NCBI RefSeq assembly: GCF_988243305.1
Contig: NZ_OZ547136.1
Length of the DNA stretch: 64,000 nucleotides
Strand: one strand, 5' to 3'
Shown: positions 23,818-28,819 of the stretch, one piece after another
Layout: each line of letters begins with the position of its first letter
How positions within the stretch are numbered: the stretch's first letter is position 1
Notes under the pieces: model-generated
The model's database searches: none
Told to the model about the DNA's origin: nothing
What the model saw: the letters and a program-made list of their open reading frames with translations, nothing else
Position numbers and translations under genes: made by a program

Positions 23818-23833
23818 GGCGTGCTTCCCCATC

Positions 23834-23858
23834 GCCTGATGCGGCGTATCAGGCCTAC
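23834..23858. repeat. REP element between dgcE and alkA
   Basis: gcctgatgcggcgtatcaggcctac palindrome immediately after the dgcE stop. Confidence 0.65.
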
Positions 23859-24712: not shown

Positions 24713-24845
24713 CGCATCTCCTTGTTAATCCGCTTTCAGCATAAACGTTATTCAGACGTTACGCTTTGCTTTCATATTCCGGTTGTCGCGACGGCAACAT
24801 TTCGCTAAAGTCACGCCCCTTCTTCACCGGCATGGGGATTATTTC

Positions 24846-26198
24846 GTGTTTATTGGTTTTGATTACGGTACAGCAAACTGTTCAGTGGCGGTCATGCGCG
24901 ACGGTAAACCGCATTTGCTAAAAATGGAAAACGACAGCACGCTGCTGCCTTCAATGCTTTGCGCGCCAACGCGTGAAGCGGTAAGCGAATGGCTGTACCG
25001 CCATCATGATGTTCCGGCAGACGACGATGAAACGCAGGCGCTGCTGCGTCGGGCGATTCGTTATAACCGCGAAGAAGATATCGATGTTACGGCGAAAAGC
25101 GTGCAGTTCGGTCTTTCCTCACTGGCACAGTACATTGATGATCCAGAAGAAGTGTGGTTTGTGAAATCACCAAAATCGTTCCTCGGTGCCAGCGGCTTAA
25201 AACCGCAGCAGGTAGCGCTGTTTGAGGATCTGGTCTGCGCAATGATGTTGCACATTCGCCAGCAGGCGCAGGCACAGCTGCCAGAAGCGATTACTCAGGC
25301 GGTGATTGGTCGCCCTATCAACTTCCAGGGGCTGGGCGGCGATGAAGCAAACACCCAGGCGCAGGGGATTCTGGAACGCGCGGCGAAGCGTGCCGGGTTT
25401 AAGGATGTGGTATTCCAGTACGAGCCGGTCGCGGCTGGGCTGGATTACGAAGCCACCTTGCAGGAAGAAAAACGGGTGCTGGTGGTGGATATCGGCGGTG
25501 GTACGACTGACTGTTCATTGCTGCTGATGGGGCCGCAGTGGCGTTCGCGTCTCGATCGTGAAGCCAGCCTGCTGGGTCACAGTGGTTGCCGTATTGGCGG
25601 TAACGATCTGGATATCGCACTGGCGTTTAAAAACCTGATGCCGTTACTGGGCATGGGTGGCGAAACCGAAAAAGGCATCGCCCTGCCGATTCTGCCGTGG
25701 TGGAATGCGGTTGCCATCAACGACGTACCTGCGCAAAGTGATTTCTACAGTAGTGCCAACGGTCGTCTGCTTAACGATCTGGTACGCGATGCCCGCGAAC
25801 CGGAAAAAGTGGCCCTGTTACAGAAAGTCTGGCGTCAGCGTTTAAGCTATCGCCTGGTACGTAGCGCAGAAGAGAGCAAAATTGCGCTTTCAAGCGTAGC
25901 GGAAACCCGCGCCTCACTGCCGTTTATCAGCGATGAACTGGCTACGCTGATTAGCCAGCAAGGGCTGGAAAGCGCCCTCAACCAGCCACTGATGCGGATT
26001 CTGGAACAGGTGCAACTGGCGCTGGATAACGCCCAGGAAAAACCGGATGTCATCTACCTGACCGGCGGTAGCGCCCGTTCGCCGCTGATTAAAAAAGCGC
26101 TGGCAGAACAGTTGCCGGGCATTCCGATTGCAGGCGGCGATGACTTTGGCTCCGTCACCGCCGGGCTGGCACGCTGGGCGGAGGTGGTGTTTCGTTAA
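24846..26198 (+). CDS. yegD: Hsp70/actin-like ATPase family protein YegD
   Basis: Track ORF begins at an upstream ATG, but the K-12-like N-terminus MFIGFDYGTANCSVAV corresponds to a GTG start at 24846 (450 aa). DYGT and DIGGGTTD ATPase motifs of the sugar-kinase/Hsp70/actin superfamily. Confidence 0.82.
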   Translation: MFIGFDYGTANCSVAVMRDGKPHLLKMENDSTLLPSMLCAPTREAVSEWLYRHHDVPADDDETQALLRRAIRYNREEDIDVTAKSVQFGLSSLAQYIDDPEEVWFVKSPKSFLGASGLKPQQVALFEDLVCAMMLHIRQQAQAQLPEAITQAVIGRPINFQGLGGDEANTQAQGILERAAKRAGFKDVVFQYEPVAAGLDYEATLQEEKRVLVVDIGGGTTDCSLLLMGPQWRSRLDREASLLGHSGCRIGGNDLDIALAFKNLMPLLGMGGETEKGIALPILPWWNAVAINDVPAQSDFYSSANGRLLNDLVRDAREPEKVALLQKVWRQRLSYRLVRSAEESKIALSSVAETRASLPFISDELATLISQQGLESALNQPLMRILEQVQLALDNAQEKPDVIYLTGGSARSPLIKKALAEQLPGIPIAGGDDFGSVTAGLARWAEVVFR

Positions 26199-26210
26199 TT
26201 GAAAACTGGC

Positions 26211-28157
26211 TCAGCAACGGCTTAAATCAGCCTGCGCCTGAGCCAGTTTTTCTGCCGCCTGACGTAACGGTTCCATCAACGGCATGGTCCGTGCTGGAGC
26301 ATGAAGGCGGAATCGCTGCAACTCTGTCGCACCGACAGTCAGCGCCGATTCCAGCCGATGTCGTTTGGCGGCCATTTTTGCCATTACCGCTTGTCTGTCT
26401 GCAGGCGTTACCGCTTCGTTCGGCCTGAAAACAAAACGGCGTTCGCAACTCGCTTTCCAGTCGATAACCGCCTGGGTCAGATGATCACCAAAACCTTTTA
26501 CTTGCTTAACGCTCCGTCGGGTAACGTCTGCCGCCGTTTCAATACCAAAGGACCGTAACGCCGCTTTACGCGCAGGGCCAACGCCGGGAATAGAGGCAAC
26601 ATCAATAAAAAATCCCTCCAGAAACTTCTGCTTCTGCCGTTCCCTTGCGGTGTCCTGAAGTGCTGCCAGATCGCGCTTTTCTTCTTCCGGTAACCCAAGA
26701 ATTTCGTCCTTCATTTTTTCGAGCATCGTCCGTTTGGCGATAAAACCTTCCAGCCCGCCCAACCGTTGGATCTGGCTGACTAAATGGTCATAGTCCATTT
26801 TCGCGCGATTAAACGCCTCACGGCGTTGCTGGATTTCTGCTTTGTACGCTTTGCTTGTCAGGCTGCCAATAATCCAGATAGCCGCCAGCACAGGAACCAA
26901 AATAATATAACGCGGTTCTGCCTGAAGGCCGCAAAGCAACAGCGATAACGCTGACAGTGCGATCTCAATCAGAATGATGTATTCGCGCCGTAACAGGCCT
27001 AAAGGAAGCGGCCTGCCAGTCAGTTGGAAATGATCGGGTAATGGCAGTTGCAATGCTGGCGGTGCTACTGACGCCATCACCATCGCCCAGACTTTCGCCA
27101 GCACAAAATCACCGCTGGTGGTAATGACCTCTTCGCCGAGATCAATAAAATAGATAACGCCTTGATTATCCAGCGCACACCACGGGCAGTCAGTCAAATG
27201 ACCGGGGTAAACATGCATTGCCGAAACGGTACATTTCTTTAACTGTTGGCGTAGTAAATCAAGTGCCGCAACCCACGCTTTTGCCGTCGGACGCCCGGTT
27301 GCCACGCCACTTTCCGTGAATGCCTGCTGAAACATGGTTTCAACATCGCCCGGTAACATCGACAGCGGAATAGATCGTGGCGGCGGTTTTAAACCACGTC
27401 GCTGATTATCTGACGCGTAGGCATAACGGAAATGGGCAATATCCGTCTCCAGTGCATTACCCGCATCAGAGACAAGCGGTACACCGGAATAAGGATGCCG
27501 CCCACCAAACAAGACGTGAAAAATCAGCAACGCAAGGCCAAAATTATCGTGATTCGCGGTGCGTTCAAAGCCGACAAATGATGGCAAGGTTTGCAGCTCT
27601 GGCGGCGTAAAATGCGACACGCCGACTTCGCATAAATGCAGCGTGCCATTGGCGTTAATCTGAAAGGAGTCGCTATCAATCAACACCACTTTGCTGTCAC
27701 GGCCTACCATAAAGCTGTTCTGGTTTACGTCACCCACGACATGCCCGTGCTCGTGAACCGTAGCAAAAGATGAAGCAATATTGCGCGCAACATAGAGTAG
27801 AAAATCCCACGCACAATGAGGGTAACGTTGGCGACGATGTGCCGGGCTATAGATCATATGAATCGGTTCTTTACCAGAAACTTTTGGCATCATAAAACCG
27901 ATAACCTTTCCGCCTCGTCCACCGTGAAGCGTTGCCTGCGGCCAGGCGACATAATTCAACAATTGCGCGTCAGCTGTCGCAGCCATAAAGGCAAGTTTGT
28001 CCTGTTTTAAGGCGGGTGGCGGCGTGTGATAAATCTTGGCGACACTATCGACAAACTCCTCGATATCATAAACCGCGCCTTCGCCACCTTTTCCCAGTTC
28101 ACGCCCGAGAGTGGTCAATTCACCTGTCGATGTAAATACTTTTATATTTGTCTTCAT
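26211..28157 (-). CDS. yegI: Membrane-associated Ser/Thr protein kinase-like protein YegI (N-terminal kinase-like domain, two predicted TM helices, C-terminal helix-hairpin-helix region)
   Basis: 648-aa ORF. Gly-rich loop LGKGGEGAV (res 21-29), candidate catalytic region HGHVVGDVNQN (137-147) and LIDSDS (159-164). Hydrophobic stretches at res ~393-433 (YIILIEIALSALSLLLCG / YIILVPVLAAIWIIGSL). HhH-like motifs IPGVGPARKAALRSFGIETAADV and VKGFGDHLTQAV (res ~521-565). Confidence 0.85.
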   Translation of the reverse strand: MKTNIKVFTSTGELTTLGRELGKGGEGAVYDIEEFVDSVAKIYHTPPPALKQDKLAFMAATADAQLLNYVAWPQATLHGGRGGKVIGFMMPKVSGKEPIHMIYSPAHRRQRYPHCAWDFLLYVARNIASSFATVHEHGHVVGDVNQNSFMVGRDSKVVLIDSDSFQINANGTLHLCEVGVSHFTPPELQTLPSFVGFERTANHDNFGLALLIFHVLFGGRHPYSGVPLVSDAGNALETDIAHFRYAYASDNQRRGLKPPPRSIPLSMLPGDVETMFQQAFTESGVATGRPTAKAWVAALDLLRQQLKKCTVSAMHVYPGHLTDCPWCALDNQGVIYFIDLGEEVITTSGDFVLAKVWAMVMASVAPPALQLPLPDHFQLTGRPLPLGLLRREYIILIEIALSALSLLLCGLQAEPRYIILVPVLAAIWIIGSLTSKAYKAEIQQRREAFNRAKMDYDHLVSQIQRLGGLEGFIAKRTMLEKMKDEILGLPEEEKRDLAALQDTARERQKQKFLEGFFIDVASIPGVGPARKAALRSFGIETAADVTRRSVKQVKGFGDHLTQAVIDWKASCERRFVFRPNEAVTPADRQAVMAKMAAKRHRLESALTVGATELQRFRLHAPARTMPLMEPLRQAAEKLAQAQADLSRC

Positions 28158-28357: not shown

Positions 28358-28819
28358 ATGAAAAAGATATTACTTATGTTGAGTCTGCTATTTTTTACTA
28401 CCGCGGGCTTTAGTGAAGTTTCGGATACGTTAGTGACGGGAGGTTATGATAAACAAGCGATGTCTGACGCCATTCAACATGCGCGGAAAGAAACCGATCA
28501 ATTCATCGAAATTATGAATAAAAAAGATGCCGATACTTTCGCGGTCAAAGCCCCGATAACCGATCACGGAAGAACAGAGCATTTCTGGCTTACGGATGTC
28601 ACTTATTCTAACGGCATGTTTATTGGCGTAATAAGCAATGACCCTGGTATTGTTACAAACGTAGAATATGGTCAGGAGTGGAAAATCAAGAAAGAAGATA
28701 TTTCAGACTGGATGTATACGCGCGGGGATAAAATTTACGGCGGTTATACCATTGATCCTTTATTAGTCACCTATCCAAAAGAAGAAGCCGACGAGCTAAG
28801 AGCAAAATTAGTTCGCTAA
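28358..28819 (+). CDS. yegJ: Secreted/periplasmic DUF2314-family protein YegJ
   Basis: 153-aa ORF with an N-terminal signal peptide (MKKILLMLSLLFFTTAGFS); divergent from yegI and convergent with pphC. Confidence 0.75.
   Translation: MKKILLMLSLLFFTTAGFSEVSDTLVTGGYDKQAMSDAIQHARKETDQFIEIMNKKDADTFAVKAPITDHGRTEHFWLTDVTYSNGMFIGVISNDPGIVTNVEYGQEWKIKKEDISDWMYTRGDKIYGGYTIDPLLVTYPKEEADELRAKLVR

Follow-up and report, generated by a model that had tools for sequence, protein, structure and literature searches.

Where does the YegD protein begin, and what could an Hsp70-like protein do that ends where the ATPase domain ends? These questions are raised by an open reading frame (ORF) on the forward strand of a 64,000-nucleotide (nt) stretch of DNA, contig NZ_OZ547136.1 of RefSeq assembly GCF_988243305.1, the whole of which we call the window. 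A first-pass annotation, made from the letters and a list of ORFs, described this frame as YegD, an orphan ATPase of the Hsp70/actin fold with unclear function that starts at a GTG codon and lies next to alkA and a kinase locus. We found that the feature is the already catalogued Escherichia coli gene yegD (b2069). That it is yegD and that it starts at the GTG at position 24846 is, as a joint statement, close to certain. The best explanation of the locus as a whole, to which we assign a probability of about 0.8, is that yegD is a monocistronic gene translated from this GTG and that its product would be a stand-alone nucleotide-binding domain (NBD) that serves as a module for engaging a partner.

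Read from the GTG, the frame encodes 450 amino acids (aa) with the N-terminus MFIGFDYGTANCSV and is closed by a TAA that ends at 26198. The protein scores 810.1 bits (cut-off 331) with the NCBIfam equivalog NF008673 (PRK11678), its residues 1-450 aligning to profile positions 1-450 of 450, and it matches the Pfam HSP70 profile (PF00012) with E=3e-24. Membership in the YegD family is thus given by a full-length profile match as well as by orthology and synteny with E. coli K-12. In K-12 MG1655 the gene is annotated as b2069 (2147674..2149026, 'HSP70 family protein YegD', NP_416573.4) with the same GTG start. The two proteins are identical at 444 of 450 residues (99%, six substitutions), the promoter and leader are identical base for base, and the two genomes share the gene order dgcE-alkA-yegD-yegI and the presence of yegJ. 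RefSeq names the gene yegD, 'molecular chaperone', in the best-matching strain, XJ6.1, where it begins at this very GTG base. Of the 5426 complete E. coli genomes compared, 5417 contain a 1.9-kb segment of this locus, the best identity being 99.2%.

Start codon and promoter of yegD

The mechanically called ORF is 21 codons longer than the gene annotated in K-12 and would encode a protein of 471 aa (Table 1). It had been taken to be ATG-initiated, which is incorrect, since the longer frame opens with a TTG. From the upstream in-frame stop, a TAA at 24726, to the GTG, TTG 24783 is the sole canonical start and no in-frame ATG occurs, the nearest ATG (24832) being out of frame with yegD. Four independent lines of evidence agree that GTG 24846 is the true start.

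Comparison of orthologues places the start at one position across a wide range of species. The homologous start codon is GTG in E. coli, E. albertii, Citrobacter, two Enterobacter species and Superficieibacter, and ATG in Enterobacter sp. Ag1, Acerihabitans, Providencia, Vibrio, Shewanella, Aeromonas, Colwellia, Pseudoalteromonas, Cellvibrionaceae and others. In 11 of 23 family representatives, which are at most 54% identical, the aligned methionine is the protein start, three residues ahead of the G-x-D-[FY]-G-T phosphate-1 motif. The pattern of substitutions points to the same place. In an alignment of eight enterobacterial species the numbers of variable columns at the three codon positions were 22/12/45 in codons 2-50 and 10/11/12 in the 63 nt that precede the gene. 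The aligned TTG stood 63, 63, 64, 61, 63, 63, 67 and 59 nt ahead of the start codon, so that four of the eight species differ by lengths that are not multiples of three, and the segment contains an in-frame stop in Superficieibacter.

Published transcript and translation data give the remaining lines. SMRT-Cappable-seq recorded a monocistronic b2069 unit with its transcription start site (TSS) at NC_000913.3:2147647 on the forward strand (PMC6131387 supplement). This position corresponds to 24819 of the window and lies 27 nt ahead of the GTG (K-12 2147674). TTG 24783 is therefore absent from the mRNA, and the in-frame codons of the leader that remains (CTT CTT CAC CGG CAT GGG GAT TAT TTC) include no start codon. 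A yegD'-'lacZ translational fusion carrying -300 to +24 around this start, in frame, was expressed and was activated by RyhB, and the same study included ribosome profiling (Ribo-seq) covering yegD (PMC4666370).

A longer product initiated at TTG 24783 would make use of an open frame and a permitted start codon, and we see next to no chance that it is the real one. Its TTG lies upstream of the mapped TSS, within an invariant -35-like hexamer at a fixed 17-nt spacing from TAAAGT. The segment that it would add has the indels and in-frame stop described above and no third-position bias, and the distant orthologues all begin at the MFIGFDYG position, as does the family hidden Markov model. The 471-aa ORF is an artefact, and its TTG is the -35 element of the yegD promoter. 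Thus the first-pass annotation was right about the GTG, which annotation in RefSeq and K-12 also supports, and about 21 extra residues that are not conserved; the alignment of the eight species shows a non-coding pattern there. The checks that it had proposed for the start codon are largely in the literature cited above, in the form of the mapped 5' end, the Ribo-seq data and the lacZ fusion, and they agree with the GTG.

The promoter elements are well conserved. None of the eight enterobacterial sequences departs from TTGTCG, TAAAGT and the 17-nt spacing, not even that of Acerihabitans, whose YegD is only 69% identical. The yegD gene is transcribed as a monocistronic unit from a sigma70-type promoter (TTGTCG-17 nt-TAAAGT) with a GC-rich discriminator and +1 at 24819, and is translated from the GTG behind a modest Shine-Dalgarno (SD) sequence on the 27-nt leader. 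A related motif, comprised of TAnnnT, a GC-rich block of about 8 nt (typically GCGCGGCC) and a T-run, lies upstream of yegD in Vibrio, Shewanella, Colwellia, Pseudoalteromonas, Aeromonas, Providencia and others. It stands 20-35 nt ahead of the start codon in gammaproteobacterial yegD orthologues and falls at 24783-24830 in the window. Among 19 upstream sequences, 16 of them from outside the Enterobacteriaceae, TAnnnT was at the equivalent place in 16 (carriers include loci L002, L011, L012, L014-L025 and L029). In a one-occurrence-per-sequence search the motif held 14.5 bits of information, compared with 9.6 ± 0.2 bits (maximum 10.1) in thirty shuffled sets. Promoters of the rrnB P1 type have similar GC-rich discriminators and are sensitive to ppGpp/DksA. 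The conserved discriminator tentatively suggests that the yegD promoter may be under growth-phase or stringent-type control, an idea to which we give somewhat less than even odds.

The first 21 nt of the 5' untranslated region (UTR) (CTTCTTCACCGGCATGGGGAT, 24819-24839) hardly vary between E. coli and Superficieibacter. This conservation exceeds the needs of an SD sequence, and neither folding nor a RyhB duplex calculation found a structure or small RNA site that would account for it. The UTR from the mapped start has no significant structure (z=0.36). Several candidate control elements were considered and rejected. A hairpin sequestering the SD (CACGCCCC with GGGG...CGUG), which could have acted as an RNA thermometer or been opened by RyhB, was seen only in folds of longer RNAs; we rejected it because a transcript begun at 24819 lacks the C-run and its 5' UTR is unstructured. 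Start-site selection like that of pyrC and pyrD was not supported, the folding energies across successive discriminator starts ranging from -7.8 to -6.9 in E. coli and being inconsistent between species. An upstream ORF from the invariant AUG at 24832 encodes no conserved peptide, since the frame of this AUG with respect to that of yegD varies from species to species: in Citrobacter the two coincide, which accounts for the 455-aa annotations in that genus, and elsewhere they do not. Lastly, membership in the heat-shock (sigma32) regulon found no support by inspection, the only method used for this point: CCCCTTCT resembles a sigma32 -10 element, but no CTTGAAA-like -35 lies 13-15 nt upstream of it, and expression points away from heat induction.

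Immediately next to the yegD -35 hexamer, at 24762-24775 and about -57 to -44 from the yegD TSS, is GCTTTGCTTTCATA (AAAGCAAAGC on the alkA strand), which we take to be the Ada-binding region of the alkA promoter.

A nucleotide-binding domain on its own

The protein aligned with Hsp70 over the ATPase domain and no further. Pfam matched just the N-terminal part of the HSP70 profile (at most 205 of 599 positions in the best stretch), together with a short MreB-type phosphate-2 match. A profile built from 93 family members aligned to residues 1-379 of DnaK with 99.9% probability; the end of YegD aligned to about DnaK 384, and nothing aligned to DnaK 380-638. YegD thus ends where the DnaK NBD ends, in keeping with the first-pass annotation, which had noted the lack of an obvious substrate-binding domain partner. 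The interdomain linker with its VLLL sequence, the beta-sandwich substrate-binding domain and the helical lid are all missing.

By contrast with this truncation, the ATP site is intact. In all 93 sequences D6, K110, E193, D215, G217, G219, T220, D222, G252, D256 and G407-G408 are invariant. Of these, D6, K110, E193, D215, T220, D222 and G407-G408 correspond to D8, K70, E171, D194, T199, D201 and G341-G342 of DnaK, G407-G408 belonging to the adenosine loop, and G217 and G219 fall in the glycine region of phosphate-2. The Hsp70 catalytic set of Asp, Lys, Glu, Asp, Thr and Asp is therefore complete within an actin-like NBD. YegD shares with canonical Hsp70 NBDs the two-lobed fold, these residues, equivalents of E267 and K270, and the GG...P loop. 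The invariance of the ATP-site residues indicates that purifying selection kept the machinery for ATP hydrolysis, and YegD most likely binds and hydrolyses ATP. On this alignment we consider it very probable that YegD is an NBD-only protein competent as an ATPase.

The coupling of this domain to co-chaperones appears to have been lost. In DnaK, R151, R167 and N170 carry the signal from the J-domain and the linker. They align to T170, V189 and Y192 of YegD, and these positions are not conserved in the family consensus. Since YegD has no linker or substrate-binding domain and lacks these residues, it is unlikely to be a peptide clamp driven by DnaJ and GrpE, and we think it probable, with a fair margin for doubt, that it is not a J-protein-driven chaperone.

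In place of these features the family has two of its own. In subdomain IB the beta-rich part, about residues 76-112 of DnaK, has given way to two helices (43-53 and 61-76), and subdomain IIB is larger by about 50 residues (helices 283-347) and bears a conserved ND..AQ..FY motif. The best inference from these sequences is that YegD may be an ATP-gated binding module, using nucleotide-dependent movements of its lobes to engage a partner. Contact with the partner would be made by the helical insert in subdomain IB (about 41-85) and the enlarged subdomain IIB (about 266-335).

Could YegD instead be a genuine Hsp70 chaperone that folds or holds clients with DnaJ, CbpA and GrpE, or with a separately encoded substrate-binding partner? 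Its NBD is clearly homologous to Hsp70 and has the intact catalytic set, chaperone screens have counted its gene among the four of the Hsp70 family in E. coli (PMC3930520; PMC6598250), and an ASKA clone of yegD was recovered in an overexpression screen for resistance to H2O2 (PMC8228696). These points must be set against the end of the protein at the NBD and the loss of R151, R167 and N170. In addition, co-chaperone genes were neither close by nor conserved at any of the 77 loci examined, the promoter is sigma70-like with no CTTGAAA-type -35, and the Photobacterium orthologue was 7-fold down at 37 °C, where it was listed beside cold-shock genes (PMC7396505). We consider a chaperone of this kind improbable. 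The label 'molecular chaperone' goes further than the sequence warrants, since the ATPase core is all that YegD has; relative to DnaK it is without linker, substrate-binding domain, lid, heat-shock-type promoter and co-chaperone genes.

The same comparisons bear on the idea that YegD is a polymerising ATPase of the actin or MreB type, forming a cytomotive filament and not acting as an Hsp70-like switch. The fold is actin-like and the phosphate-2 match is of the MreB type. However, the likeness to MreB and bacterial actins is below that to Hsp70 NBDs, with no evidence of filament interfaces; no full-length match to MreB (PF06723) was obtained, and the closest fold neighbours were not actins. 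We regard this as very unlikely, and the Hsp70-like, ATP-gated module as the better description.

An NBD-only Hsp70 relative is also found in mammals (HSPA13/STCH). The closest known systems include the NBD of Hsp110/Sse1 (6gfa, 3d2e) and Ssz1 of the ribosome-associated complex (4gni, 5mb9), atypical Hsp70s that are regulators and not foldases. Bacteria have a further NBD-only relative in EutJ (3h1q), a far more distant protein of much smaller size (about 275 aa) whose gene belongs to the eut operon. We found no solved structure of a close relative, the best PDB sequence match being DnaK itself (E=2.5e-16). A role in anti-phage defence was also considered and rejected: comparison with the models of PADLOC-DB gave no full-length match, the sole match being 27 residues to PDC-M61B at DIGGGTTD with 23 bits.

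Neighbouring genes and the kinase cassette

The features of the locus are collected in Table 1.

Table 1. Elements of the yegD locus in window coordinates.
Feature	Position	Strand	Remarks
-35 hexamer TTGTCG	24783..24788	+	TTG invariant in 8 enterobacterial species; TSS 36 nt downstream
-10 hexamer TAAAGT	24806..24811	+	Invariant in 8 species; TSS 8 nt downstream
GC-rich discriminator CACGCCC	24812..24818	+	6/7 G/C; part of the gammaproteobacterial yegD motif
5' UTR	24819..24845	+	27 nt, from +1 C 24819; SD-like GGGGAT at 24834-24839; out-of-frame AUG at 24832
Mechanical ORF	24783..26198	+	471 aa; begins at TTG 24783
21-codon 'extension', TTG to GTG	24783..24845	+	Includes MSRRQHFAKVTPLLHRHGDYF; non-coding promoter and leader
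yegD coding sequence	24846..26198	+	GTG start, 450 codons, TAA stop; predicted Hsp70-type NBD only
Terminator-like hairpin, bidirectional	26201..26251	both	Arms CTGGCTCAG (26206-26214) and CTGAGCCAG (26238-26246); inner GGCT/AGCC stem

Upstream, alkA is divergent from yegD at a distance of 133 nt, with dgcE beyond it. Downstream, yegI is convergent with yegD, with 12 nt between the two stop codons, and is followed by yegJ (+), pphC and yegL. The placement next to alkA and convergent with yegI had been described correctly by the first-pass annotation. It had also put yegD 'immediately upstream' of yegI; the genes are adjacent, and tail-to-tail is the better description.

The space between the two genes contains a hairpin that begins 3 nt past the yegD stop and spans the last codons and the stop (26211-26213) of yegI. 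An A-tract and a T-tract flank it, one to each side, and it folds with -26.9 kcal/mol (z -3.7) on the plus strand and -30.5 kcal/mol (z -4.4) on the minus strand. A simple terminator scan missed it because its loop is long. From its sequence it looks like a bidirectional terminator for the convergent genes, and the presence of yegD-yegI in a list of overlapping convergent transcript pairs (PMC12288877) is in keeping with this.

Other Hsp70 genes have co-chaperone neighbours, as in dnaK-dnaJ, hscB-hscA and hscC-djlC. In the closest annotated genome, no dnaJ, other J-protein gene or grpE was annotated within 20 kb on either side of yegD, as had been noted from the window. We then surveyed the neighbourhoods of 77 loci, one genome per species, by means of Pfam-annotated neighbours, tblastn searches of 82 loci with the neighbours from the window, and clustering of 3076 ORFs by all-vs-all comparison. 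Gene order was conserved at the level of genus or family only (dgcE, alkA, mdtA), and a conserved neighbourhood was rejected. The dgcE gene, usually with alkA, lies ahead of yegD throughout the Enterobacteriaceae and in Acerihabitans. Among the 77 loci, tblastn and clustering found no neighbour common to different genera outside the Enterobacteriaceae, and for this reason 'orphan' is the correct word for yegD. A sister family of about 30% identity in Pseudomonas, Mesorhizobium and Burkholderiales is equally solitary.

The kinase genes of the window raise the possibility that YegD is a component or target of a module formed by the YegI kinase, the PphC phosphatase and the vWA protein YegL, with or without YegJ. 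The cassette YegL-PphC-YegI, of vWA, PP2C and Ser/Thr kinase proteins, is presumably of the kind called the TerY-P triad. The tail-to-tail genes with their common terminator hairpin and overlapping transcripts speak for such a link, as does a report that moderate overproduction of YegJ strongly raises yegD mRNA (PMC13232886). A further point in its favour is that in Superficieibacter a yegJ homologue is found directly downstream of yegD and the kinase is absent. The distribution of the cassette speaks against it. By tblastn, yegI, pphC and yegL adjoin yegD in E. coli only, with no conserved co-occurrence or co-orientation; they are not at that position in Citrobacter, Enterobacter, Superficieibacter, Acerihabitans, Providencia, Vibrio, Shewanella or the rest. 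E. albertii has only a piece of the cassette beside yegD, consisting of the yegI 3' end with the terminator-like region and 43 codons of yegL (locus L006, 8351-8495). Moreover, the yegD transcript is monocistronic (PMC6131387), the convergent orientation means that yegD and yegI are not an operon, and the link to yegJ is a single overexpression experiment. A functional tie to the kinase module is in our judgement improbable, slightly more so than the chaperone role.

The E. albertii remnant looks like a deletion scar, which indicates that the cassette was present in the Escherichia ancestor. On these gene orders, the adjacency of yegD and the kinase genes is lineage-specific, an accident of Escherichia genome history, and is therefore unfit for guilt-by-association. 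The connection to yegI that the first-pass annotation had implied is not upheld, and we retain a solitary partner-binding module as the preferred reading of YegD.

Several further observations were made on the genes around yegD. In the window, as in K-12, yegI and pphC are separated by yegJ (DUF2314; 28358-28819), which runs on the opposite strand. The yegJ gene is absent from XJ6.1, where yegI and pphC overlap by 4 nt (locus L001, 9649-9652); this presence/absence polymorphism has already been described (PMC13232886; bioRxiv 303594). In Superficieibacter electus (locus L010, 8549-8983) the yegJ homologue is 74% identical and on the same strand as yegD, and yegI, pphC and yegL are missing. The adjacency is worth recording in view of the reported induction of E. 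coli yegD by YegJ overproduction.

In Acerihabitans arboris (locus L011, 3596-8350) a dgcE homologue of 44% identity reads in the direction of yegD and ends 82 nt ahead of it, and alkA does not intervene. The linkage of dgcE and yegD is therefore older than the insertion of alkA, and in this species the two genes could be co-transcribed. The spacer between dgcE and alkA is 37 nt in the window (23818-23854) and in XJ6.1, and 108 nt in K-12 (locus L084, 3585-3692). AlkA has 285 aa in the window versus 282 aa in K-12; these length differences point to an indel at the convergent 3' ends of dgcE and alkA. In Salmonella the ryeC/sibA small RNA locus comes next after yegD (PMC2515195), and in K-12 it comes after yegL.

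YegI (26214-28157) is a biochemically established Ser/Thr kinase, and gave no Pfam Pkinase match at E<=0.001. It showed weak kinase-domain matches to the lanthionine-synthetase and PD-T4-6 models and a weak helix-hairpin-helix match at residues 517-553. These matches suggest a very divergent kinase, possibly with a nucleic-acid-binding C-terminal region.

Expression and implications

Expression of yegD is low and conditional. RyhB activates its translation and not its transcription (PMC4666370), and published predictions of RyhB-yegD pairing are weak (PMC7154689). We looked for a pairing site by an unrestricted, crude duplex calculation and rejected the candidate, as 72% of random window segments scored equally well or better. 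Messenger RNA from yegD accumulates during recovery from stationary phase (PMC13232886) and was 14-fold higher in an rpoS mutant of O157:H7 (PMC2907692). Both reports fit stringent-type control of the promoter and do not prove it.

Five points weigh against the account given here. The TSS rests on one published dataset and a single position, and heterogeneity of the start site is possible. The notion of stringent control has no basis other than the composition of the discriminator and indirect expression reports. A direct RyhB pairing site is not evident, given the weak published predictions and a duplex calculation no better than random. Loss of R151 and R167 is no proof that J-proteins do not act on YegD. 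Finally, a whole-word search of the literature, which turned up 36 papers that mention yegD, found no biochemical, structural or phenotypic study of YegD. The absence of a biochemical study means that its ATPase activity and its proposed partner are drawn from sequence only, and the literature search bears out the earlier remark that the function of YegD is unclear.

The gene, its GTG start, the Hsp70-like fold and the orphan status are all in current annotation or literature and were thus already known. What this analysis adds is in the detail: the spurious 21-codon extension as promoter and -35 element, the promoter motif, the loss of the J-coupling residues, the lineage-specific adjacency of the kinase genes, and the terminator that yegD and yegI seem to share. 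Together with the promoter motif, RyhB and iron starvation, YegJ overproduction and the exit from stationary phase offer handles by which a function may be assigned to YegD.

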